Of a DNA stretch of 38,306 nucleotides, positions 16,558 to 29,747 are shown piece by piece. Location of the stretch: positions 1 through 38,306 of the forward strand of contig JALIDO010000002.1 in the NCBI GenBank assembly GCA_022865265.1, written 5' to 3'. Position 1 is the stretch's first letter. Each line of letters starts with the position of its first letter. The stretch comes from Candidatus Nanohalarchaeota archaeon QJJ-5 (GTDB lineage Archaea; Nanohalarchaeota; Nanosalinia; Nanosalinales; Nanoanaerosalinaceae). The position numbers and the translations under genes are program-made. Under the pieces are notes generated by a model, which was not told where the DNA came from, ran no database searches, and saw only the letters and a program-made list of their open reading frames with translations.

Positions 16558-16944
16558 CTAGAACGTGAGCATATCGAGATGCTTCCCCTCAAGGTGGTTC
16601 TGCTGTCTGAGGAAGATATGTGGGAGGTTGTGATGGTCGACGCGTCGTTTTAGTTCTGTATCATTCGTACAGAGGATATACCCATCCTGTGCATATTCGA
16701 GGAGTTGTTGATCGACCGGGACGTCGGCTGCTGTCTCGATGATGTGGACGTCTTTCACTGCAACGAGTTTCTGGACCAACTGGTGATACTGTTGGTCTTC
16801 GAGGTTCAGTGCCTCATTGTAGGTGCGTTCAAGGGTATTACATGCATGATCTGGCCCGATGAGGCGTTCGATCTCATCGAAGACAGGAACATTGAACTGG
16901 AACGGGAGGACGAGGAAGTTGGCATCAAGGAGGACCTGGTGCAT
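16558..16944 (-). CDS. Fcf1/Utp24-like PIN-domain endonuclease (COG1412 type)
   Basis: PIN acidic residues lie in VLLDANFL and CTNDTELKRRV...LPHIFLR. The start is placed at the ATG at 16944, about 27 nt downstream of GTATAAAA. ATG 16968 is an alternative. The track ORF extends to 17124. Confidence 0.7.
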   Translation of the reverse strand: MHQVLLDANFLVLPFQFNVPVFDEIERLIGPDHACNTLERTYNEALNLEDQQYHQLVQKLVAVKDVHIIETAADVPVDQQLLEYAQDGYILCTNDTELKRRVDHHNLPHIFLRQQNHLEGKHLDMLTF

Positions 16945-17007
16945 GTCTTTATGTATGGTCAGTATCATTTTATACTCATGGAACAACGGGTACTGCATAC
17001 CTTTGAA

Positions 17008-17928
17008 ATGCTGGATGGGAGCTATGAGCTTGAATGCTGGGAGATTGGGAACGGTGATCCTGTCTGTCTGTTGATCGCTGGTATTCATGGTGATGAATAT
17101 CTTTCGATGGAGATCGCAGAACATGTCAGTGACAATCTAGAGCCAGCAACAGGGACGGTACGGATTATTCCTGTGGCGAATATTTTTGCTGCCTTCCGAC
17201 GGGCCCGAGCGACACCGTGGCCTGAGTTCGATTCACACGAGAGTGAGGAGCGTAATCTGAACCGGTCCTTCGATGCTGCGAAGGCGGCTGATGATCCGCG
17301 TGAATTGAGTCTCACTGCGGCTGTTGCATACTATATTTTGAACGAGGTCGAGACGGCTGATTATGTGATCGATATGCATACGGCAAGCTGGCCGGACCGG
17401 AAACTTCCACATGGACGTATCAAGGTATCTGAAAGCTACGATAGCGATGTTGTTGATGCAATGGAGGATCTGCTCCAGTGGAGTGGGCTTGAACATGCTT
17501 TGAAGACGGATCCAGCAGAGATCGGGTCTGGTGTCTTGAGCGATATCGTGCCACAACTCGGGACGCCAGCGATAACCTTAGAGATCGGCGGGGCGGGGAA
17601 CTATCGTGAAGAGGACTGGGAGACCTACCGGACCGTGATCAGGAATCTGTTACAGGGGGTCGGTATCAAGGAGGGTGAAAGTGTGATTGGAGAACCATCA
17701 ATCTTCCATGGGCTCCGGACCGTCTATGCACCGCGGTCTGGAACACTGGAACATGTAAAAGAGCTCGGTGATTCGGTAACAAAGGGTGATGTGATTGCAC
17801 GGGTCCGTGATACAACAGGTACGATCATTGATACAGTTGAGGCACCTGTAGCAGGAGTTATCGAGGCAGTCACCCAGCGTGATGCGGTGAACAGAGGGAA
17901 CAGGGTTGCGAAGATTGCGATTGAATGA
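17008..17928 (+). CDS. Succinylglutamate desuccinylase/aspartoacylase (AstE/AspA)-family zinc hydrolase
   Basis: Track ORF 16705.. trimmed to the ATG at 17008, about 33 nt after TTTTATAC. Family motifs are present: IAGIHGDE (Zn ligands), NLNRSF, VIDMHTAS and the C-terminal barrel segment GDVIARV...APVAGVIE. Confidence 0.8.
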   Translation: MLDGSYELECWEIGNGDPVCLLIAGIHGDEYLSMEIAEHVSDNLEPATGTVRIIPVANIFAAFRRARATPWPEFDSHESEERNLNRSFDAAKAADDPRELSLTAAVAYYILNEVETADYVIDMHTASWPDRKLPHGRIKVSESYDSDVVDAMEDLLQWSGLEHALKTDPAEIGSGVLSDIVPQLGTPAITLEIGGAGNYREEDWETYRTVIRNLLQGVGIKEGESVIGEPSIFHGLRTVYAPRSGTLEHVKELGDSVTKGDVIARVRDTTGTIIDTVEAPVAGVIEAVTQRDAVNRGNRVAKIAIE

Positions 17929-17969: not shown

Positions 17970-19019
17970 ATGACAATGCAGCTCGATTATGACTACAAGG
18001 CCTCATCATTAAAGCGTATCGAACTTTCGTCTGATGCACGGATTGAACAAAGTGGTCACAAGCCCCAGACCGGTGATGTGATCGCTGTCCGGATCACGGA
18101 ACAACGCGGGGAGTACGGAGAACTTGATCTTCCTGGCGGTGATCTCGTCGATCTCGAAGAAGGTGATGTCGTTCTTGGGTGTTTTGGTAATCGGGCTGGT
18201 GTGAAAGGCTATATCGGGACGGTTCCAGAACGGATCGAGGAAGGTGATGATGTCTTTTTCCTTGGTTCGGGAGGGATCTTTGGTGCGTACAAATCAGCGA
18301 CGAAAGAGCTTGGTCTTCCGTATCGAGCCGAATTCATCGGCTATGTATCTGATGGGGAGAATATTCTCAATATGAAGGATTTCGGTGTTCAGAGTCATGA
18401 GGATCTGGAGGAAGAACCAGTCATCGTGGCTGTGGTCGCCAGTCGTATGGATGCTGGAAAGACGACGATCGCCTCGGAGTTGATCGAAGGGTTGACAGAT
18501 GATGGCTATGCGGTTGGGTCTGTCAAGCTAACAGGATCGGCCCGTGAACGTGACCGTGTGCAGATGTATGAATCAGGATCGCAGGTATCGCTTGACTTCG
18601 TCGATGGCGGGATGCCCTCGACCGTTGATGATGCTGATCAGGTCATCGATACAGCCAAAGGGATTGTTGATGCAGCCTGGATGGAGACTGATCTCGATGT
18701 GATCGTGGCCGAGTTCGGTGCCGGGATCATCAGTAACTATAATGTGAAAGAGACACTGCAGGATCTCGATATTCGTGATCGTGTCGCCTCGGTGGTCGTT
18801 GTTTCACTGGATGTTGCCGGGGCCTATGGGGTCAAGAAGGTCTTATCAGAGATCGATTACGATCTTGATCTGGTCTCTGGCCCTATCACCGATACAACAG
18901 CTGGTGTTGAAAAGATCGAGGACACGGTCGGTGTTCCTGCATTGAATGCCTTCCGCGATGATGATGTCGAACAAGCGGTTTCTATCGTTGCTGAAAAGAT
19001 CGATTCCTTTGAAGACTAG
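17970..19019 (+). CDS. P-loop NTPase-fold protein with N-terminal beta-rich domain (DUF1611/cDPG-synthetase-like?)
   Basis: 349 aa. Walker A-like VVASRMDAGKTT is followed by KLTGSARE and DFVDGG. The family assignment is from memory of motif patterns only. Confidence 0.55.
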   Translation: MTMQLDYDYKASSLKRIELSSDARIEQSGHKPQTGDVIAVRITEQRGEYGELDLPGGDLVDLEEGDVVLGCFGNRAGVKGYIGTVPERIEEGDDVFFLGSGGIFGAYKSATKELGLPYRAEFIGYVSDGENILNMKDFGVQSHEDLEEEPVIVAVVASRMDAGKTTIASELIEGLTDDGYAVGSVKLTGSARERDRVQMYESGSQVSLDFVDGGMPSTVDDADQVIDTAKGIVDAAWMETDLDVIVAEFGAGIISNYNVKETLQDLDIRDRVASVVVVSLDVAGAYGVKKVLSEIDYDLDLVSGPITDTTAGVEKIEDTVGVPALNAFRDDDVEQAVSIVAEKIDSFED

Positions 19020-19909
19020 ATACCGCGTTCGGACTGGAACGCATGGGTCTTGCGGTAGATGAATTCCATGACTCTGTCTGCCATGTCGATCCCGACCGCT
19101 TCATCTGTAGATTCGACACCAGGTGACATGTTGATCTCACCGATATAGAAGCCATCCTCACCCTCCAGGATATCGATCCCACAGAAATCGAAGCCACACA
19201 GGCGTGCTGCTTTCCGTGATACTTCTCGCATCTCTTCTGTAGCATCGTGCTGTTGTCGTTCGCCACCGGCCGAGATATTGGATCGCCATTCGTCTTCACC
19301 GCCGACACGTTTGTAGGAGAAGGTCTCGTCTCCGAGGACGATCACTCTGATATCTTCACCTGGGTTCTCGATGTACCGCTGGAGTGAAACGTCTTGTTCG
19401 AACAATGTCAAGGTATCGATGATCGGGCTCAGGCCGGATTCGTCCTCTGCTCGCATCACGCCTTTGCCACCATAGCCGGAGATGAGTTTGATGATGACAG
19501 GATAGCCGAGTTCTTTGGCTGCTCGTTCGGTCTCTTTGGTCGAAAGCGTATATGTGGAATCAGGGACCGGGATACCGCCTTCTCCGAGGGTCTTGACGCT
19601 GTAGAATTTGTTCGAGGCAATGGTCAGCGAATCGGTCTCGAGCTGAGTGTATACATCATGTTCTTCCAGTATCTCTGGGATGTGTTCTCCATACAGGAGA
19701 TCGCTCCCAAGGAATCTGATAAAGACGGCATCGAACTCATTCAGGTTGGTGTTCCGATACATCAGGCGTGTGTCTTCTTCACCATAGACGATGCGGACAC
19801 TTTCAAGTGGAACACCGAGAACCGTATCGAAGTATTCTTTTCCTTTCTCGATGAAATGATGGTGTTGTGCAGATTTCTTGCCATAGATAACAGCACACTT
19901 AATCATCAT
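19016..19909 (-). CDS. RimK-family ATP-grasp ligase (alpha-L-glutamate ligase-like)
   Basis: Trimmed to ATGATG at 19909/19906, which overlaps the upstream TAA and is preceded by GAGGTGAT. Motifs NKFYSVKTL, GYPVIIKLISGYGGKGV, LQRYIENPGEDIRVIVLG, WRSNISAGG and CGIDIL...YIGEINMSPG. Confidence 0.85.
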   Translation of the reverse strand: MMIKCAVIYGKKSAQHHHFIEKGKEYFDTVLGVPLESVRIVYGEEDTRLMYRNTNLNEFDAVFIRFLGSDLLYGEHIPEILEEHDVYTQLETDSLTIASNKFYSVKTLGEGGIPVPDSTYTLSTKETERAAKELGYPVIIKLISGYGGKGVMRAEDESGLSPIIDTLTLFEQDVSLQRYIENPGEDIRVIVLGDETFSYKRVGGEDEWRSNISAGGERQQHDATEEMREVSRKAARLCGFDFCGIDILEGEDGFYIGEINMSPGVESTDEAVGIDMADRVMEFIYRKTHAFQSERGI

Positions 19910-20717
19910 CACCTCGCAGCATATCTGCCACTTTTCCATAGACGTTTTTGCCACTGTGTTCCTGGAAGAGATCGAGTCGTGGTTCGTTCTCGACGCCAAC
20001 GATAGTGTTGCCGATCAGTCGCACACGGCACATCTTGGTACCGATGGCCTGGGCGGTCTCGTTCACCGCTTTGCTCTGTTCTGTCGAGAGTTTGCTGTAC
20101 TGTATCTTGTCATTGTTATCGAGATGCCAGGCGTCGCCTTCGAGTTCGAGCGAGACGAGGTCGCCGTCGATATACAGGACATCATAGACATCGCCATCAA
20201 CGTATTCCTGGAGGATGATGACATTTTCCTCGTGGTTGGCCGACTGTGCGAATGAGTGAAGGTCATCGCTGTCATCGATGGTTTTCATACCGGCGCTTGT
20301 GAATTGTTCATACATCTTTGCCACGGCCGGGAACTCGATATCGTCTTCGATTTCGGTGAGTGCTTTCTCGGTCGAGAAGGCGATAGTCTGTGGGATATTA
20401 ACATCGCGTTGATGGAGTACATGGAAGAGATAATGGCGTTTCATCATCAGAAACAGCGCTGTCGAGTCCATGTTTGTCTGGATATGGTGATCCTGGATGG
20501 TCTCGAGGAATGTCTTAGCGTAGATGGCTGCCCGTGGCTCTGGATTCAGGTAGACAGCATCATACTCGGTGATCGGTGTGCCCTCGACGGCTGCTGTCGT
20601 GGTGGTGTCTTTGTGGCTGATCTTGGCATCGGCCAGTGAATAATGATCCCACTGATCGAAATGCTCGGTCAGTCCATCGACCTCGGTCTCGTTATTCGTC
20701 AGTATCAGTAAATTCAT
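19899..20717 (-). CDS. Divergent ATP-grasp-like paralog, possibly non-catalytic or specialised
   Basis: Trimmed to the ATG at 20717, giving a 26-nt overlap with the upstream gene. It retains the ATP-grasp landmarks FPAVAKM, ILQEYVDGDVYDVLYIDG and VGVENEP. It lacks the Gly-rich loop and the R..SN..GG motif. Confidence 0.6.
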   Translation of the reverse strand: MNLLILTNNETEVDGLTEHFDQWDHYSLADAKISHKDTTTTAAVEGTPITEYDAVYLNPEPRAAIYAKTFLETIQDHHIQTNMDSTALFLMMKRHYLFHVLHQRDVNIPQTIAFSTEKALTEIEDDIEFPAVAKMYEQFTSAGMKTIDDSDDLHSFAQSANHEENVIILQEYVDGDVYDVLYIDGDLVSLELEGDAWHLDNNDKIQYSKLSTEQSKAVNETAQAIGTKMCRVRLIGNTIVGVENEPRLDLFQEHSGKNVYGKVADMLRGDDD

Positions 20718-22293
20718 CGAGCTGTTTCTCACCTGTATCGTTCTTCTGGTCGGGTTTCCACACGCGGTCGACTTTTTCTTCTCGGCGCCACTGGTCGAGG
20801 AAGTCTTCGACACTGTCAGGCATGACGCTTTTCAGGATACGGCCCTTACGCATGATCTTCCGGAGTCGTACCTCGAGTGTCTTTGAGAGGCTATCGTAGT
20901 AGTTCTTGTCGGCGTAGATGAGTCCTTCCTTGATACGCCAGTATGCTGTTGTTCCTTCTGGCGCCATGATGATGTATCCGCGTTTCCGGTCTTCCCACTC
21001 CTGCATGGCATCCAGCATCTCGTCTTTGTCGACGTAATAGACACCGCCTGAGGTAGTATGGGCTGATGGATCGACGATCAGTAGTTCATCTCCCTCGACG
21101 CCCACGGACAAGACATAATGACCCGTGTTTGCCTGTGGGAACAACATCGGTTTGGCGAAGTTCGGGACAACCAGACCGCCATCGTTGAACCATGTCTTGA
21201 ACTCATCGCCGAGATCGGTGATATTGTCGTATTCGACCCACGCTGCACGGATTTCACCATCTGTCTCGTTTTCGATACCTTCGATCAGATCATCGGGCAT
21301 CACGCCTTTGCCGACTTCGGTACCGGTCACTTCTGCAAGTCGTCCTTGATCAATATCATAGCCAAACAGTGTTAGGGCCATTTCTGCTGATGCAGGGCCA
21401 CAGTATGAGGGCTCCTGAGCGACAAAGTACTTCTTGATATCTTCAAGTGTTTCGATATCGGCCTGGACGCGTTTGAACAGGACTTTCCGATCCATCAGTT
21501 CGCTGTTCGGTGTCAGCATGAAGTACCCGGAATCGGTCGAGATGGTGGTACCGAATGCGGATATGTCTCTGATCTCGCCTGTTTCGTCTTCAAACTTGAC
21601 CTTCTTCCCTGGTTTGAGGACATCTGAGCTCCTGAGATACAGGCCCGCTGCGTAGTTCCGGATCAGGTCTTTGAAGCCGAAGAAGGCCAACAGACCGATG
21701 ACTCCGATCATCCCGTATGATGCTGCGATGACAGCATTGCTCAAGATCTGGGACTGGATGCCCAGTTGAACGAGTGCAATATCGATGATGACGAGATACA
21801 GCAGTACCTTGAGTCCTTTGAACGACAGTTCCATGATCTTCGGCGAGAAGCCAAGTTCCTGGAAATACTTCTTCAGCCCCACTGTATCGATGAACCGCAT
21901 CATGAAGTTGACACTCAGGTTGATCACAAAGATACCAAGGATCACTGTCAGGATGGCCGTCATCACGATCGGTGCGTTCTCGATCACGGTCCGATAGAGA
22001 TCGCTGCTCGCTGGGGCATTCAGATACAGGAGGGCAAGACCGATAGTCGCGATGGTAAAGATATATTCGATCGGTTTGTGTGGTTGTTTATCTCTATTAC
22101 GGATTTTTTCCACGACATCCTCTGATGCGCGTCGCTGGTAGAAGTATTTGAATATTGTGCTGGCTATCCGTCCCAGTAAGAAGCCACCTGCTAGGATACC
22201 AAAGGTAACAAGTATACGGACGGGCGTTGGTTGTTCAAGAACGATGTTCAGGAATTCTGACATGGGCTGGGAGGTAAAATCCATAGACCACAC
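20692..22293 (-). CDS. MscS-like mechanosensitive channel fused to a C-terminal papain-fold (C39-like) cysteine peptidase domain
   Basis: N-terminal multi-TM region plus MscS TM3/beta-domain (FGFKDLIRNYAAGLYLRSSDVLKPGKKVKF..GEIRDISAFGTTIST). The C-terminal domain has QEPSYCGPASAEMAL (Gln and Cys), NTGHYVLSVG (His) and LLIVDPS (Asp). The start is the GTG at 22293 or the ATG at 22284. TATATAAA lies about 22 nt upstream. Confidence 0.8.
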   Translation of the reverse strand: MWSMDFTSQPMSEFLNIVLEQPTPVRILVTFGILAGGFLLGRIASTIFKYFYQRRASEDVVEKIRNRDKQPHKPIEYIFTIATIGLALLYLNAPASSDLYRTVIENAPIVMTAILTVILGIFVINLSVNFMMRFIDTVGLKKYFQELGFSPKIMELSFKGLKVLLYLVIIDIALVQLGIQSQILSNAVIAASYGMIGVIGLLAFFGFKDLIRNYAAGLYLRSSDVLKPGKKVKFEDETGEIRDISAFGTTISTDSGYFMLTPNSELMDRKVLFKRVQADIETLEDIKKYFVAQEPSYCGPASAEMALTLFGYDIDQGRLAEVTGTEVGKGVMPDDLIEGIENETDGEIRAAWVEYDNITDLGDEFKTWFNDGGLVVPNFAKPMLFPQANTGHYVLSVGVEGDELLIVDPSAHTTSGGVYYVDKDEMLDAMQEWEDRKRGYIIMAPEGTTAYWRIKEGLIYADKNYYDSLSKTLEVRLRKIMRKGRILKSVMPDSVEDFLDQWRREEKVDRVWKPDQKNDTGEKQLDEFTDTDE

Positions 22294-22362
22294 GTAGGGT
22301 TAACCTGTTCTGTTGTTTATATACCTTGTGCTTGATTCCTGTCTTCAATCGGTGCAGAAACG

Positions 22363-23571
22363 TTATTTGATCGTTCCATGGCCGATAAGGCGCCACCGTG
22401 AGCCCATTCTTCGTGAAATAGCGACCCGTTCTCCTTCTTCAACACAGACTGGTCGTTTGAGCTGGATCTTGACGGTTTCACCAGCCTGGGTCACAACACC
22501 GGATGTCTTCGCTGTGCCTATGTTGAGGAGCAATGGTTCTTTCTCTTTGATGTTCTCTACGGTCTTGTCTTCTTCGCTCCCGACGACACGGTCCATGAGT
22601 TCAACGTTCATGGTTAGTTGCTCTTCTATCGGTGGTAATTTTCCTTTCTTTCCGAGAACATTGCCTGCAAGATTGTCTGACTTTGTCATGTTCGGGTCAA
22701 GACCGGTCTCGATACCTAAGAGCCCGCCTGGTGTCCCTGTCGAGACAGAGCCGCTGCCTTGCATGATACTGCGTACTGTCGTGGTGACTACTTCCCAATC
22801 GTCGTCTTCATCATTGATACCGGGTCTGAGTTCGATCTCATCACCTTCTTCGAGTTCGCCTTCTACGAGGCTTCCACCGACAACGCCACCACTGAGATCA
22901 TCAGCCTCTGTTCCTGGCTTGTTGATGTCGAAACTACGTGCAACAAGCATGCGTGGTTCAGCGCCAGCATCACGGTCTGGTGTCGGGATTTCTTCTTCGA
23001 TGGCTTCGACGAGCTTATCGATATTGACCTCGTGCTGGGCCGAGATGGGGATGATCGGTGCGTCTTCTGCTACCGTCCCTTCGATGAATTCCTGTATCTG
23101 TTGATAATTCTGTTTTGCTTCTTCCTTCGAGACGAGATCGATCTTATTCTGTACGATGATGATGTTCTCGATCCCCACTATATTCAATGCTTCAAGATGT
23201 TCCCGTGTCTGTGGTTGTGGACAGTCTTCATTTGCCGAGACGAGAAGCAAAGCACCGTCCATGATGCTTGCACCGGAGAGTACATTGGCCATCAGTGTCT
23301 CGTGGCCTGGTGCATCGACGAGTGATACTGCACGTGCTGGGCTCGTCTCTCCACCACAGTCACATGTTTCAGAAACAGTATAGGTATCACAGTCGTCACA
23401 CTGCCGGATGACGATATCAGCATACCCGAGGCGGATCGTGATGCCTCGTTTTAGTTCTTCTGAATGTTCATCTGTCCACTTACCGGACAGTGCACGTGTC
23501 AATGTCGTCTTCCCGTGGTCAACGTGGCCTACAAGCCCTATATTGGCTTCCGGGATCAGCGATTCACTCAC
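22363..23571 (-). CDS. eif2g: Translation initiation factor aIF2 gamma subunit
   Basis: GTPase G1 ([10 protein letters not shown]), DAPGHE, NKID and a zinc knuckle (CDDC...CDCGG). Confidence 0.95.
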
Positions 23572-24076: not shown

Positions 24077-24934
24077 ATGATGGCACAGGTCGGTGAGATA
24101 CTTGATTCAGCATGGGCAGCGATGAGTGAATACATGCAGGTCTCGAATCTTACTCAAGGAGAGGTAACCTCGGCTGTCATCATAATCGTTGTTGGGCTGA
24201 TCGGGGGCCGGATCGTTGCTCAGGTGGTCCGACGGCTTCTCAAGATGACAGCATTGGATGACCTCGCTGTCAAGGCCGATATCCAGCAGCTCCTGCGGAA
24301 ATTGGATTATTCGGGATCGCTTTCTGACCTGTTAGCCGATATCACCAAGTATATCATCTATCTCTTTGTCCTGTTTGCCCTATTCACGATGCTTGAGGTG
24401 CAGTTCCTCAGTCAGCAGCTCCAGTCGTTGTTCACCTATCTGCCTCGGTTGTTCATCGCATTGTTGGCTGTCATCATCGGGTCGATCATTTCCTCACATG
24501 TTGGAAGTATCACGATGAAGATATTCCGTGCTGGGCCGATGTCACAGCGAATCGATGAATCTGAAGCCTCATTGCCAGCATATCGTCTTGTTGGTGGCGG
24601 TGTCAAATTCATCGGGTATATCGCAACAATATTGATCGCCCTAGCAATCCTTGGAATCAACAGGATCGTGATCTATATGTTGCTTGCGATATTCATGACT
24701 GGCTTGACGGTACTGGTCATTATCGGGATGAAAGACGTGGTCCGTAATGTAGCGGTATCGATCTACTTCCAGCTCTCACGGACTGTCTCGGCAGGGGACA
24801 CGATCGAGACGGAGGAGTGTTCTGGGGAGATTATTCGTATAACACCGTTATACACTGTCATCAATGATAGTGGTGAGCATTTCTACGTACCGAATACCGC
24901 CCTTATTTCAAACACGATGCGGCATGAATCATAG
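24077..24934 (+). CDS. MscS-like mechanosensitive channel, minimal form without peptidase domain
   Basis: Same architecture as the N-terminal 280 aa of ORF 20692-22293 (GMKDVVRNVAVSIYFQLSRTVSAGDTIETEECSGEIIRITPLYTVIN). It ends directly after the beta-domain. Confidence 0.75.
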   Translation: MMAQVGEILDSAWAAMSEYMQVSNLTQGEVTSAVIIIVVGLIGGRIVAQVVRRLLKMTALDDLAVKADIQQLLRKLDYSGSLSDLLADITKYIIYLFVLFALFTMLEVQFLSQQLQSLFTYLPRLFIALLAVIIGSIISSHVGSITMKIFRAGPMSQRIDESEASLPAYRLVGGGVKFIGYIATILIALAILGINRIVIYMLLAIFMTGLTVLVIIGMKDVVRNVAVSIYFQLSRTVSAGDTIETEECSGEIIRITPLYTVINDSGEHFYVPNTALISNTMRHES

Positions 24935-24940
24935 GTACCG

Positions 24941-26386
24941 ATGGACCGAATTGTCGCCTATTATCTTGGTCTCTTTCTCAAGATCTATTCGGCGTTTCTG
25001 CTAGTTCCGGTTGCGGTTGGTCGGTATTTTGGTGAATCGTTTGTCCAGATGGAGCCGTTCATCTATGCGGCGTTTATCTCGATCGTGCTCGGCTATGCGC
25101 TCGATTACTGGGGTGTGAAAAAGGAACCAGATGCGATCGAAGGGATGCTTGCAGCGACAACAGGGTGGATCGCTGCTGTGGCGATTGGTGCGCTCCCGTT
25201 CATGGCGATGTTAAACATGGGCTTCGTTGATGCGTTTTTCGAATTGATGGCCGGGTTCACGACGACAGGGATGTCGATTCTTCCTGATCCTGCTGTTATG
25301 CCACATTCATTATCTTTCTGGCGTGGGTTCAGTCAATGGATCGGCGGGTTAGGAATGCTGACGTTCTTTGTAGCTGTCATCATCGAGGCAGGTGGTGTGG
25401 CCCAGAGTCTTTTGTTTGCTGAAGCAGACAAGACGGATGCTGGCACGATCCGGCCGTCGCCGATCAATGCAATCAAGTCACTCTGGTATGTCTATATCGT
25501 CTTTACGGCATTGCAGGCGACGATCCTCTATCTCCTTGATCTTTCTGTCTTCGATGCCGTGATGTATGCCTTCCAGACCCTACCGACTGGCGGGTTCTCC
25601 CATACGGCTGGTGGGATCGCAGCATTTGATTCGCTAGCGATCGAGGCGACGTTCACGGTGTTTATGTTCATCGGTGGAACCAATTTCCTGTTGTTGTATC
25701 TTTTGCTGAAGGGACGTCCGTGGGCTGTACTTCGAAACTATGAGTTCCGTTTGATGACAAAGGTACTGGCATTGGCACTGGTCATCATCGGTCTGGATGT
25801 CTGGATGAATAGTGGTCGAACGATCATAGAAACAGTCAGAGTTACGGTATTCATGACAGTTTCTGTGATGAGTTCGACCGGGTTCGAGCCGACAGGGGTC
25901 CGAACATTCCCGGAGCTTTCCAAGATGATCTTTCTGATGCTGATGTTTGTCGGTGCCTCGCTCGGGTCGACGACAGGCGGTATCAAGATGCTCCGATTCG
26001 GTGTCTTGTTGCGGGTTGTCATCAGAGAGGTCCGCAGTTTCTCCATGCCCCGGTCGGCTGTCAATCCGATCATGATCGGTGCCAGGCGGATCAAGACAGA
26101 AGAGTTGTTACGGATCATCACGATCGTCACGGTCTGGTTGACCATGATCATGGGTGGTGCCGTGATAACGATCGTGTTCTCTGATCTGGCGATGATCGAG
26201 GCGATCCAGGGAATGACATCATCGATGGGCACGATGGGGCCGTTGTTCATCGAACCCGGGGAATTGATCGGATTGCATCCTGTTGTGAAACTGTTGTGGT
26301 GTCTCGGGATGCTTGCTGGTCGTCTTGAGATTCTACCGATCTTGATCTTGATGAATGTCGAGGTTGTCAAGCGGATCCGTGGTTAA
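24941..26386 (+). CDS. trkH: Trk/Ktr-type potassium transporter membrane subunit TrkH
   Basis: 481-aa polytopic protein with repeated pore-loop Gly motifs (FTTTGMS, PTGGFS, SSTGFE, TTGGIK). Confidence 0.9.
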   Translation: MDRIVAYYLGLFLKIYSAFLLVPVAVGRYFGESFVQMEPFIYAAFISIVLGYALDYWGVKKEPDAIEGMLAATTGWIAAVAIGALPFMAMLNMGFVDAFFELMAGFTTTGMSILPDPAVMPHSLSFWRGFSQWIGGLGMLTFFVAVIIEAGGVAQSLLFAEADKTDAGTIRPSPINAIKSLWYVYIVFTALQATILYLLDLSVFDAVMYAFQTLPTGGFSHTAGGIAAFDSLAIEATFTVFMFIGGTNFLLLYLLLKGRPWAVLRNYEFRLMTKVLALALVIIGLDVWMNSGRTIIETVRVTVFMTVSVMSSTGFEPTGVRTFPELSKMIFLMLMFVGASLGSTTGGIKMLRFGVLLRVVIREVRSFSMPRSAVNPIMIGARRIKTEELLRIITIVTVWLTMIMGGAVITIVFSDLAMIEAIQGMTSSMGTMGPLFIEPGELIGLHPVVKLLWCLGMLAGRLEILPILILMNVEVVKRIRG

Positions 26387-26428: not shown

Positions 26429-27085
26429 ATGTATGTCATTGTCGCTGGGGTCAACACTATTTCGAAGAAACTGATCGAGGATCTCGTACAGAACCATGAT
26501 CTGGTCGTTGTGGAAGAAGATGAGAAAAAGGCTGAACGGATCTACTCGAAGACAGGGGCCAAAGTCATCAATGGATCACCGACGCGGCTCTCGATCTTGG
26601 AGGATGCGGGGATCTCGAAGGCGGATGTGTTGGTCTCGACGTTGGAAGGAGCGAATGAGAACATGATTGTTTCGATGCTCGGGCGGAAATATGGTGTCCC
26701 AAAGGTTGTGGCCCGGGTAGAGGATACTGATTATCTGGATATCTACAAGATGTTAGAAGTGAACACGATCGAGTACACGGATCTGGTGTATGGTGAGTTC
26801 ATGTCTGTCATCGAGCATCCATCGATTCGGAAGATTGCTAATGTAGGGGCTGAAAAGGAGGTGCTTGAATTGCTTGTCGACCGCGGCTCACCGATCCAGA
26901 ATCTCCGGATCGATGAGGTCAAGTCTCTTGATAAGTTCCCGAAGGAGGATGTCGTGTTCACGGCTGTGCTACGTGATGGCGAGGTTCATGACCCATCTGA
27001 GACGTTCAGATTGCAGCAAGGTGATTCTGTGATCGTGATCATCGATCCTGGCGCGAAGAAAGGGATCAATGCAGTGCTGGATTAA
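26429..27085 (+). CDS. trkA: Trk system regulatory subunit TrkA (RCK N + C domains)
   Basis: 218 aa with RCK/TrkA-N and TrkA-C organisation. The N-terminal dinucleotide-binding Gly motif is degenerate (IVAGVNTISKKL). Confidence 0.85.
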   Translation: MYVIVAGVNTISKKLIEDLVQNHDLVVVEEDEKKAERIYSKTGAKVINGSPTRLSILEDAGISKADVLVSTLEGANENMIVSMLGRKYGVPKVVARVEDTDYLDIYKMLEVNTIEYTDLVYGEFMSVIEHPSIRKIANVGAEKEVLELLVDRGSPIQNLRIDEVKSLDKFPKEDVVFTAVLRDGEVHDPSETFRLQQGDSVIVIIDPGAKKGINAVLD

Positions 27086-27261: not shown

Positions 27262-27981
27262 TCACTCCAGTATCTGGACAGCATCCTCGATTGTTGATAC
27301 TTCGATGGTTTGCATATCGTACTGTGCGGTCATCGTCGTGATATCGACCTGCTGGACGGTATAATCATCGGCACTGTACCGGCCGAAGGGATCGGGTTGA
27401 CTATTGTTTTTTCGTGTATAATACGTGATGCTGCTTTGTCCTTCGGGGACGAGGAATGTTTTTTTGCCTGCTGTGCCTGCGGCCATCGCTTTTTCCAAGA
27501 TGCCACCGACACGTCCGATTCTGCCATCTGGCTGTATGGTGCCGGTGATCACAGCTGTATCAGGAACGGTCCTGTTCTGGATCGCAGCAATAATCCCAAG
27601 TGTCATCGCTGCACCGGCTGATGGTCCTCCCAATTGGGCTGCATCGATATTGAACCGTATGGTGATGTCTTTCTCAGCAAGTGATGTCTGTGTATACTGT
27701 TCCGCGATCTGTTTTGCCGTCCGTCCTGATGCTTGTGTATCGAGGTCGATGAATGGGTCTGTGTCGAGACGAACCCGTCCATTTCCTTCACTGATATCGA
27801 TGCTGACGGTACTGATGCTTCCTTGGCCGTTCTCTGTGACGGTTGCGATGTTCACAGTGGTTGTTCGTTCGCCCGCAAATGCAGAAGTGGAGGGTGGTAG
27901 GTCTGGCTCTTGGACGGCCGTGCCCAACAGAAAGACGAATCCATGTGTGATGGCTAAAAGAAGGAGGATCTGTCGTCTCAT
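27262..27981 (-). CDS. Membrane-anchored or secreted Lon-like S16 serine protease domain (ATP-independent)
   Basis: Start set at the ATG at 27981, which overlaps the aIF5B TGA (ATGA). N-terminal anchor RRQILLLLAITHGFVFLLG. Lon catalytic Ser motif GGPSAGAAMTLGI and a downstream Lys (ILEKAMAAGTAGKK). No AAA+ module. Confidence 0.75.
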   Translation of the reverse strand: MRRQILLLLAITHGFVFLLGTAVQEPDLPPSTSAFAGERTTTVNIATVTENGQGSISTVSIDISEGNGRVRLDTDPFIDLDTQASGRTAKQIAEQYTQTSLAEKDITIRFNIDAAQLGGPSAGAAMTLGIIAAIQNRTVPDTAVITGTIQPDGRIGRVGGILEKAMAAGTAGKKTFLVPEGQSSITYYTRKNNSQPDPFGRYSADDYTVQQVDITTMTAQYDMQTIEVSTIEDAVQILE

Positions 27982-29747
27982 GACTGGAGTTTCCACCGTG
28001 GATCGATGCTATCTTTGATATCGACGATCTCCTCGAGGGTGGATTGTTCACCGGCTGAGATATACTCGCTGTATTCTTTCAGGGTATTGTAGTCTTCTGC
28101 ATCGATGTCTGTCAGGTATGTTCCACCTTCCTCGATCTGTCGGCCGACCTGCACATTCGTGAGTGAGAGTGCTACTTCGTCGCCTTTTGTCGCTAGATCG
28201 ATCGATTCACCATCTTCCTGTACTGATTTGATCGTGCCCAGTTGCTCGCCTTCACTCGTCATGAATGTTGATCCTGGAGCTACAGCACCATCGATGATCT
28301 CGACGCCGACAACTGCAGGATTTGATGATCGAAAGACGTGATCGGGCATGATACGGAACTTGCCTGGTCGTGCAATACTGCCGAGTTCTTCCTGTCGTTC
28401 TTGTTCCTGCAAGGCGGTGAGCCATTCCTGATACTGGTCGACGAGTTCATAGATCACATCCGAGGTGAAGACCTGGATATCATCGTGGTTGGCCAGTTCT
28501 TCGCTGGCCGAGTCTGTCATACTCGTGTTGAACCCGAACAGTATCTTGTGCTCGCGATCAAGGCCTTCGAGATTGACGATATCTCGTTTCGTGATCTTAC
28601 CGACTTCGGCCGAACCGATAGGGATTTGTTCTTCTCTGAACGTCTTCGACACGGCTTCGAGGCTTCCGAGGGAGTCTGCTTTTACGCTTACACCTTCTGG
28701 TTGTGTCGTGACATCGACTTCTTGTATCTGTTCGGTGATCGCTTCTCGGGCTGTATCGATGTCTTCGCTGTCATGGACGGCACGTAATGGTGCTCCGGCC
28801 ACAACATCATCAAGATGTTTCGCTGAGATCTTGACACCGGCTGCTGGTTCGACCTGCTCGAGTCGGTCAAACTGCTGTTCGCGGCGCATCTCGGCCATTG
28901 CTTCTGGTTTCAGTAATGATTTGACGTCTGTCTGGACACATCCATCTGAGCCCCCGATGATGATCGTATCGTCGTTTCTGATCACGCCATCATAGAGGAT
29001 GATATCGATCGTTGTTCCGAGGCCTTTGACTTCGTTGACCTCGAGGACGGTCGCTTTCCCGATGCCATCTTCTTCGATTTCGAGTCGCTCCCCGAGGAAC
29101 TGCTGAGAGAGGCCTGAGATGGTCATGAGTAATTCAGGAATCCCTTCACCTGTCTGGGCTGAGATCGGGATGATGGCGACTTTCTTCTGGAAATCATCCA
29201 CCCGATCAAAGCGTTCACAGGTGATGCCAAGATCGTGGAGGTCGCCCATGATCTCATAGATGGTCTCATCGAGTTCATTCTGCAGACGATCTGTCTGTTG
29301 TTGATAGTTGGCGGTCCAAGAGGTGGTTTCGGTCTGCCAGCCTGGTAGTGTATCGATCTTATTGAGGGCGATGACAAAGGGTGTCTCTGATTCTTTCAGG
29401 ATCTCGACGGCTTCTTTCGTCTGTGGCTGGACGCCGTTTTTCACATCGACAACGAGGATGGCGATATCTGAAAGTGAGCCACCGCGTTTCCGCAGCGATG
29501 TAAAGGCAGCATGGCCTGGTGTATCGATGAACAGCAGACCAGGGATGGTAAGATCGACACCGATCTGGTCAGAAATATCTGCGGTGATCTCATCGATCGC
29601 ACCGATCGGTACTTCGGTCGCACCGATCATCTGGGTGATGCTACCTGCTTCTTTCTCGACGACCAGTGATCCACGGATGTAATCAAGGAGTGTTGTCTTG
29701 CCGGCATCGACATGTCCCAGTACCGATACAATTGGCTGTCGTACCAT
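27978..29747 (-). CDS. infB: Translation initiation factor aIF5B (IF-2 homologue)
   Basis: 589 aa with GHVDAGKTTLLD, DTPGH and NKID GTPase motifs plus the typical domain II-IV length. Confidence 0.95.
   Translation of the reverse strand: MVRQPIVSVLGHVDAGKTTLLDYIRGSLVVEKEAGSITQMIGATEVPIGAIDEITADISDQIGVDLTIPGLLFIDTPGHAAFTSLRKRGGSLSDIAILVVDVKNGVQPQTKEAVEILKESETPFVIALNKIDTLPGWQTETTSWTANYQQQTDRLQNELDETIYEIMGDLHDLGITCERFDRVDDFQKKVAIIPISAQTGEGIPELLMTISGLSQQFLGERLEIEEDGIGKATVLEVNEVKGLGTTIDIILYDGVIRNDDTIIIGGSDGCVQTDVKSLLKPEAMAEMRREQQFDRLEQVEPAAGVKISAKHLDDVVAGAPLRAVHDSEDIDTAREAITEQIQEVDVTTQPEGVSVKADSLGSLEAVSKTFREEQIPIGSAEVGKITKRDIVNLEGLDREHKILFGFNTSMTDSASEELANHDDIQVFTSDVIYELVDQYQEWLTALQEQERQEELGSIARPGKFRIMPDHVFRSSNPAVVGVEIIDGAVAPGSTFMTSEGEQLGTIKSVQEDGESIDLATKGDEVALSLTNVQVGRQIEEGGTYLTDIDAEDYNTLKEYSEYISAGEQSTLEEIVDIKDSIDPRWKLQS

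Follow-up and report, generated by a model that had tools for sequence, protein, structure and literature searches.

An MscS-like channel fused to a papain-fold peptidase domain and linked to ATP-grasp ligase genes in DPANN archaea

Contig JALIDO010000002.1 of Candidatus Nanohalarchaeota archaeon QJJ-5 (assembly GCA_022865265.1) encodes, within the 38,306 nucleotides analysed here (positions 1 to 38,306 of the forward strand, hereafter the window), a protein in which an MscS-like mechanosensitive channel is fused to a papain-fold peptidase domain. This architecture is essentially certain. The fusion gene (20692..22293, minus strand) is followed by two genes of the ATP-grasp type, and we propose that the channel-tethered peptidase and the ligases act together on a peptide that contains glutamate and probably serve solute or osmotic homeostasis, a reading to which we assign a probability of roughly 0.4. 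The GC content of the window is about 51%, its proteins are acidic, and their best homologues are nanohaloarchaeal.

The channel half and the peptidase domain

Read from the GTG at 22293, the fusion protein has 533 residues; the public copy starts at the ATG three codons later (22284) and has 530. The first 270 residues (21484..22293, minus strand) form the channel half, recognised by Pfam, by a PDB profile match to E. coli MscS, by the helices of an AlphaFold2 model and by Foldseek matches to MscS. Five transmembrane helices are predicted, and in the model (119 homologues as input; mean predicted local distance difference test score, pLDDT, of 81) the N-terminal half holds five long helices. 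The pore helix bears the MscS signature FGFKDL..NYAAGLYL. It is followed by a beta-domain, which Pfam identifies as MS_channel_2nd (PF00924; residues 209-270, 24.4 bits against a cut-off of 20.2) and whose strands lie between residues 231 and 262 in the model. When a profile of the fusion family was compared with PDB, it matched residues 93-175 of E. coli MscS, which comprise the third transmembrane helix (TM3) and the beta-domain (E 1e-10), and aligned the NLAAG of E. coli MscS to the NYAAG of the family, the TM3b signature. In a Foldseek search of PDB, the model's N-terminal half resembled MscS and YnaI.

The third domain of canonical MscS, an alpha/beta cage with a C-terminal barrel, has no Pfam match in the fusion protein. 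After residue 270 the chain is papain-like in the AlphaFold2 model and by Foldseek, without the canonical cage. Judged by its pore helix and beta-domain, we consider it essentially certain that the protein is an MscS-family channel subunit that lacks this cage. Positively charged residues (Lys and Arg) are concentrated in two loops, with seven after TM1 and six after TM3, and number 0-1 in each of the others. This positive-inside pattern, together with the homology to MscS, predicts an outside N-terminus and a cytoplasmic C-terminus, and hence a cytoplasmic peptidase, which agrees with the placement given in an initial annotation made from the DNA sequence alone.

The protein therefore shares with MscS channels (that of E. 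coli and the minimal forms of 171-174 residues in PDB) a kinked, pore-lining TM3 with an NxAAG motif, a beta-domain directly after it and the same predicted topology. It differs from E. coli MscS in having five predicted transmembrane helices rather than three and in lacking both the alpha/beta domain and the C-terminal barrel; a peptidase domain of about 170 residues and a conserved helical extension of about 60 residues stand in their place. The peptidase is present in just one of the window's two MscS copies, as the initial annotation had also stated: the short paralog (24077..24934, plus strand, 285 residues) ends four residues past its beta-domain (residues 220-281).

A linker of low model confidence (residues 272-277) leads into the peptidase domain (residues ~278-447; 20953..21462, minus strand), which is of the C39_2 or phytochelatin-synthase-like type according to Pfam, the PDB profile comparison, AlphaFold2 and Foldseek. 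The open reading frame (ORF) includes VAQEPSYCGPASAEMAL, NTGHYVLSVG and LLIVDPS. The initial annotation had proposed an intact papain-fold set of Gln, Cys, His and Asp here, and its coordinates and spacings proved exact. On the minus strand, the codons are those of Gln293 (21415..21417), Cys298, the putative nucleophile (21400..21402), His392 (21118..21120) and Asp408 (21070..21072), separated by 5, 94 and 16 residues, respectively. In the model, Cys298 lies near the N-terminal end of a helix (295-309), while His392 (strand 391-393) and Asp408 (end of strand 403-408) are on neighbouring strands, which is the arrangement of the papain fold. Over residues 301-460, block-mean pLDDT ranges from 77, reached in one block, to 97, and most blocks are at about 90 or higher. 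Sequence, model and an alignment to the phytochelatin-synthase-like enzyme Alr0975 of Nostoc (below) thus agree in placing the four residues in papain order on the expected secondary-structure elements.

The Pfam search that the initial annotation had suggested gave a significant papain-fold match. Peptidase_C39_2 (PF13529) matched residues 292-409 at 31 bits, above its cut-off of 24 (E 4.5e-7), and Peptidase_C39 (PF03412) matched residues 293-415 at 22.3 bits against a cut-off of 22, as expected from the C39-like order and spacing that had been pointed out. The Phytochelatin model (PF05023, MEROPS C83) scored 12.5 bits on the window protein, under its cut-off of 24.9. Across 22 divergent members of the family, C39_2 matched all 22, C39 matched 21, Phytochelatin 16 (at E <= 0.01, best 2.5e-7) and DUF3335 seven.

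A profile of the domain alone, made from these 22 members, found Alr0975 as its best match in PDB (E 8.8e-10 over 161 positions), with ComA at only E 4e-3. The four catalytic residues of the family fall on Gln64 (the oxyanion-hole residue), Cys70, His183 and Asp201 of Alr0975, whose numbering we checked against the residue names in PMC3855540. By fold, too, the top PDB match in Foldseek was Alr0975, as its glutathione acyl-enzyme (2bu3; E 1.4e-7, TM-score 0.65 on the target, about 200 columns), followed by the pseudomurein endoisopeptidase PeiR and then by the C39 domains of PCAT1 and ComA (TM-scores 0.71-0.76). The resemblance to phytochelatin synthase that the initial annotation had noted in local motifs is therefore borne out by profile and fold, with the window protein itself below the Pfam cut-off. 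Because of the Foldseek, profile and member-wise Pfam matches, we assign the domain to the C39, C39_2 and phytochelatin-synthase cluster of clan CA, where its sequence is closest to the phytochelatin-synthase type.

By the same comparisons the domain is not a canonical phytochelatin synthase, as the window protein falls below the Pfam cut-off and the acceptor residues are not kept. The acceptor-cavity residues Arg173, Lys206 and Tyr207 of the Nostoc enzyme (Arg152, Lys185 and Tyr186 of AtPCS1) are strictly conserved and sensitive to mutation in phytochelatin synthases, and R152K abolishes the activity of AtPCS1 (PMC3855540). In the profile alignment, the only basis for this comparison, Arg173 corresponds to a near-invariant Lys381 in the fusion family, and Lys206-Tyr207 to (Thr/Ser)-Gly416. 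Alr0975 (MEROPS C83; PDB 2bu3 and 2btw) is thus the best relative by profile and fold with all four catalytic residues aligned, but identity is about 20%, the acceptor cavity differs and Alr0975 is soluble where the fusion protein is membrane-tethered. The C39 domains of the bacteriocin ATP-binding cassette (ABC) exporters PCAT1 and ComA offer a different parallel, as they are also cytoplasmic papain-fold peptidases fused to a membrane transport protein. They are, however, N-terminal to an ATP-driven exporter rather than C-terminal to a channel, and the domain described here is larger and closer to the phytochelatin-synthase type.

The peptidase domain is followed by a conserved helical extension (residues ~448-505; 20779..20952, minus strand) with helices at 449-455, 463-488 and 493-505, a pLDDT of 55-70 and invariant positions that include W452, R453, Y466, K471, E474, R482 and W502. 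The C-terminal tail (residues 506-533; 20695..20778, minus strand) is acidic and predicted to be disordered; it has conserved R510 and W512 and the motif KQLDEFTDTDE, and its last 26 nt overlap the next gene. Taken together, sequence and model indicate that a papain-fold domain with an intact Gln/Cys/His/Asp set replaces the MscS cage, and that the peptidase is apparently competent.

Distribution and conservation of the fusion family

A word-indexed search found at least 250 homologous proteins of full length. The 120 best are nearly all 503-534 residues long, with 86-99% query coverage and 45-77% identity, and come mostly from Nanohaloarchaea. Their database names are "C39 family peptidase", "mechanosensitive ion channel domain-containing protein", "small-conductance mechanosensitive channel" and "hypothetical protein"; the first two are automatic labels at NCBI and JGI, given by domain only. 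For the initial annotation, a common, already annotated family would have counted against its reading. This is partly the case: hundreds of DPANN proteins share the architecture and are labelled automatically by domain. We found no paper on the fusion. Since its domains already carry labels from automatic pipelines, the protein as such is not new; its conserved architecture, operon and phyletic pattern appear undescribed.

MscS relatives are known to acquire sensory add-ons, and no cytoplasmic domain with enzymatic function is known to us in any relative of MscS. An intact enzyme replacing the MscS cage is not described in the literature that we searched, and no MscS-peptidase fusion came up, consistent with the initial annotation, which knew of none that had been characterised. 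Such genes are listed simply as MscS channels in a nanohaloarchaeal genome paper (PMC10266531), and no fusion of this kind is mentioned in a survey of papain-like peptidases from 2023 (PMC10318531).

The C-terminal 258 residues were also compared exhaustively, by phmmer, with 1.84 billion representative proteins. Of the 72 matches at E <= 1e-3, about 55 were proteins of 430-545 residues with the match in the C-terminal half, i.e. the same fusion. Short strong matches were fragments, and the nearest unrelated peptidases appeared only at E >= 1e-6; below E 1e-10, the matches were essentially the fusion family or its fragments only. Among these representatives, the peptidase domain thus appears to be essentially tied to the MscS fusion.

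A scan of one genome per GTDB species yielded 57 family loci. The search pattern included the catalytic Cys, so these counts cover Cys-bearing loci and are blind to dead variants. By the depositors' own taxon labels, the loci belong to Nanohaloarchaeota (including the complete genomes of Nanosalina and strain M3_22), Woesearchaeota, Iainarchaeum or Diapherotrites, Micrarchaeota and "Nanobdellati". The family is DPANN-wide. Ten loci (L009-L011, L014, L021, L033, L037, L038, L058 and L059) are labelled "Aenigmatarchaeota" or "Methanosarcinales"; the "Aenigmatarchaeota" contigs are bins from hypersaline sediment, with 47-58% identity to the window protein. Both sets of contigs are likely mislabelled DPANN bins.

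The active site is kept in most, though not all, of the family. Among 119 close members (~50% identity), the Gln/Cys/His/Asp set is intact in 100; counted singly, Gln is present in 100, Cys in 103 and His in 104, and Asp408 is invariant. Seventeen close members lack Cys, His or both, usually both and usually Gln as well. This joint loss indicates that, where present, the residues work as one catalytic unit. Among 56 representatives at 50% identity, about 43 are intact and about 13 dead; the full set is found in some 80-85% of lineages, down to about 30% identity. The dead-site lineages (~15%) nevertheless keep the whole domain, Asp408 and the C-terminal helices, which points to a non-catalytic role as well. 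They also provide natural controls for comparison.

The three-gene module and its possible function

The fusion gene overlaps gene 2 (19899..20717, minus strand), whose ATG (20717-20715) lies 26 nt inside it. Gene 2 encodes a divergent ATP-grasp-like protein of 272 residues, identified by NCBIfam (D-Ala-D-Ala-ligase type, E 4e-8), by PDB (Ddl, E 1.5e-3) and by synteny. Its stop is overlapped by 11 nt by gene 3 (19016..19909, minus strand), which encodes a RimK-family alpha-L-glutamate ligase of about 297 residues (Pfam RimK, E 2e-32; TIGR00768, rimK_fam, 163.6 bits against a cut-off of 143.4; E. coli and Pseudomonas RimK structures, E 1e-29). In NCBIfam, gene 3 is under the equivalog cut-offs for RimK proper, MptN, LysX and CofF. 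In a comparison of 43 orthologue pairs, the classic ATP-grasp motifs were conserved in the RimK-type protein, whereas very few were in the gene 2 protein.

The two overlaps suggest that the three genes are translationally coupled. The 69-nt gap after the aIF2-gamma gene holds a TATA-like box (TATATAAA; 22316..22323, minus strand), about 27 nt upstream of the GTG; on sequence alone, this box suggests an archaeal promoter for the module apart from that of aIF2-gamma, and a nearly leaderless transcript. A scan for bacterial promoters and terminators in this archaeal window gave counts equal to those in shuffled sequence.

Synteny was assessed on the 50 species-representative loci whose downstream flank reaches at least 2.2 kb. 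The ATP-grasp pair follows directly on the same strand in 40 of them, spanning Nanohaloarchaeota, Iainarchaeota, Micrarchaeota and Diapherotrites, with channel identities to the window protein down to 31-37%. Within Nanohaloarchaeota, the RimK gene is followed either by a convergent gene for a P-loop protein (sometimes with an AstE/AspA-type deacylase gene), as in the window, or by a co-directional gene of glutamate-cysteine-ligase family 2 (GCS2; 11 loci). These arrangements look mutually exclusive, and the window has no GCS2 gene. A distant GCS2-like gene is also present within about 3 kb in five Iainarchaeota-type loci. The upstream genes in Nanohaloarchaeota are aIF2-gamma, S6e, TrkH/TrkA and sometimes a short MscS; the TrkH/TrkA block adjoins S6e, aIF2-gamma and the channel module in most of these loci, and the short MscS is found with it in the window and in a closely related subset.

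Two loci (L065, 9278-13587; L066, 9191-12290) have a dead channel peptidase, with Cys and His lost, beside a dense island of ligases and peptidases: past the ATP-grasp pair, each has a MATCAP-type metallopeptidase (PF08014) and an AstE/AspA gene in addition to another one or two RimK paralogs. A third dead-site lineage has no extra RimK, MATCAP or AstE/AspA gene nearby. The idea that MATCAP or AstE/AspA replaces the dead cysteine peptidase is weakened by this last lineage, which has neither, and by the window, where an AstE/AspA-type gene accompanies an intact peptidase.

Known systems offer precedents for antagonism between ligase and peptidase and for a tie to osmotic tolerance, with a RimK-type ATP-grasp protein that has a peptidase as its genetic partner. 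The additions made by RimK are trimmed by RimB, and the rlo operon of P. aeruginosa, which is required for hypo-osmotic tolerance, combines a RimK-like ATP-grasp protein with a retropepsin-like aspartic peptidase and a seven-transmembrane protein whose papain-fold transglutaminase domain is periplasmic and inactive (PMC11957051). As in Rlo, the module described here joins ligase and peptidase (in the 40 of 50 loci above) with a membrane part bearing a papain-superfamily domain. In contrast to Rlo, its peptidase is cysteine-type, mostly intact, cytoplasmic and fused to an MscS channel. Since the parts are not homologous to RimB, RloA or RloB, this is a functional analogy only.

Under our preferred reading, the protein would form a heptamer like MscS, with seven peptidase active sites beneath the pore. 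One or both cytoplasmic ATP-grasp ligases would assemble a small peptide or peptide tail that contains glutamate, in alpha or gamma linkage, and the channel-tethered peptidase would cut this product through a Cys298 thioester (acyl-enzyme) intermediate, thereby opposing the ligase. The balance between the two would set the pool of free acidic solute, or of a peptide signal, at the channel mouth, and so contribute to solute or osmotic homeostasis. The domain may also bind peptide and modulate gating, which would explain why it and the ligases are kept in lineages without the Cys and His. Besides the conserved operon, this reading is supported by the further amide ligases and peptidases that recur by the module (GCS2, extra RimK paralogs, MATCAP and AstE/AspA), and by the K+ uptake genes TrkH and TrkA that adjoin it in Nanohaloarchaeota, joined by a second MscS in the window and its close relatives. 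The fusion is retained across several DPANN phyla with extremely reduced genomes and, in Nanohaloarchaeota, has a fixed place next to these K+ uptake genes, which suggests that it is important for solute or peptide management in obligate symbionts.

Several points weigh against this reading. The ligase pair is retained in the roughly 15% of lineages whose active site is dead, indicating that catalysis is dispensable in some genomes, and the second ATP-grasp protein (gene 2) lacks most of the conserved catalytic motifs. Ten Woesearchaeota-type loci carry the fusion alone, in variable contexts and without adjacent ATP-grasp genes. The S6e and aIF2-gamma synteny in Nanohaloarchaeota is of the housekeeping kind and uninformative on function. 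Finally, coupling between gating and catalysis is pure inference. A mechano-enzyme, in which the seven cysteine-peptidase sites form the pore vestibule and tension directly switches the hydrolysis of an acidic peptide made by the ATP-grasp proteins, or binding or cleavage of this peptide gates the pore, strikes us as doubtful; if true, it would be the first MscS-family channel-enzyme and a DPANN-specific solute-buffering device. The three-gene module is a defined, testable experimental system.

The dead-site lineages also invite another explanation, in which the papain-fold domain mainly stands in for the MscS cage and perhaps binds a peptide that tunes gating, with catalysis secondary or vestigial. 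The canonical alpha/beta domain is absent according to Pfam, and the 17 of 119 close and about 13 of 56 distant members that have lost Cys, His or both retain not only the domain, Asp408 and the C-terminal helices but also the ATP-grasp pair. However, a full catalytic set in some 80-85% of lineages, to about 30% identity, is hard to explain without catalysis, and the short paralog and the solved minimal MscS channels (171-174 residues) imply that a cage is not obligatory. We regard this explanation as unlikely.

The closeness to Alr0975 raises the question of gamma-glutamyl thiol metabolism. The peptidase would then act as a gamma-Glu-Cys dipeptidyl-peptidase or transpeptidase on a glutathione-like peptide made by GCS2 and ATP-grasp enzymes, at a channel that passes the thiol peptide or its products. 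The glutathione acyl-enzyme of Alr0975 is the top match by profile and fold, the Phytochelatin model matches 16 of the 22 divergent members, and GCS2 genes stand directly after RimK in 11 nanohaloarchaeal loci and, as GCS2-like genes, within about 3 kb in five Iainarchaeota-type loci. The RimK ORF also matches glutathione-synthetase ATP-grasp models, and gamma-Glu-Cys is used by the haloarchaeal hosts, with GshA-family matches in DPANN (PMC7278568). The window, however, has no GCS2 gene, and its ligase passes the RimK-family cut-off and not a GshB one. The window protein is also under the Phytochelatin cut-off, and the family has Lys381 and (Thr/Ser)-Gly where phytochelatin synthases strictly conserve Arg173, Lys206 and Tyr207. 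We think a thiol role rather improbable.

Graspetide clusters pair ATP-grasp ligases with C39 exporters. By analogy, the domain could be an export-coupled leader peptidase like that of PCAT1, which would cut the leader from a ribosomal peptide, perhaps one cross-linked by the ATP-grasp proteins, with the MscS-like pore as the exit. The C39 and C39_2 matches in Pfam and the good fold matches to the PCAT1 and ComA peptidase domains (TM-scores 0.71-0.76) fit this idea. Yet the partner is an MscS protein and not an ABC exporter, for MscS pores no peptide translocation is known, and the overlapping genes leave no room for a precursor gene; on inspection, no leader-peptide precursor ORF was seen in or beside the module. 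The ligase is moreover of the RimK family, with no graspetide-ligase model among its 25 best NCBIfam matches, and the module resembles a vertically inherited core set with conserved synteny rather than a patchy biosynthetic cluster. Such a leader peptidase seems to us quite improbable.

We give very little credence to self-directed editing of the channel's acidic tail, with the RimK-type ligase adding Glu, much as RimK acts on ribosomal protein S6, and the in-cis peptidase trimming it as a gating rheostat: characterised RimK does target an acidic protein C-terminus, which RimB trims (PMC11957051), and in nanohaloarchaeal members the protein ends in an acidic, disordered stretch with a conserved LDEFTD, but tails are short and basic in non-halophilic members with the ATP-grasp pair, conservation does not extend to the last residues, and the tail motif coincides with the start of gene 2. 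The LDEFTD motif is encoded in the overlap of the two genes, so dual coding, and not a role of the tail itself, may account for its conservation. As it is also absent outside halophiles, we downgraded it as a docking or substrate site.

Neighbouring genes in the window

Convergent on the RimK gene is a gene for a P-loop protein of 349 residues (17970..19019, plus strand) with a weak MobB-like match, for which a PDB sequence search found nothing. It is syntenic in about 20 nanohaloarchaeal loci, and it is uncertain whether it is part of the module. Upstream of it lies the AstE/AspA-type gene (16705..17928, plus strand), which encodes a putative deacylase related to succinylglutamate desuccinylase and aspartoacylase (Pfam AstE_AspA_cat, 79.5 bits). 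This gene recurs in five loci (L005, L008, L034, L065 and L066) and possibly belongs to the same peptide-metabolism island as the module.

On the other side, the short MscS paralog is directly followed by TrkH (24941-26386, plus strand) and then TrkA (26429-27085, plus strand). The aIF2-gamma gene (22363-23571, minus strand), upstream of the channel gene, is one gene away from the divergent ATP-grasp gene 2. The eukaryotic ATP-grasp protein CDC123 is described as an assembly factor for eIF2-gamma (PMC4431377). We rejected a CDC123-like role for gene 2, as it has no D123 Pfam match at E <= 1 and aIF2-gamma is adjacent only in Nanohaloarchaeota; the proximity is probably a coincidence. Further along, a 244-residue ORF (27262-27996, minus strand) contains only the C-terminal proteolytic domain of Lon protease (Lon_C, E 2e-12), and shares 19 nt with the end of the aIF5B/IF-2 gene (27978-29747).

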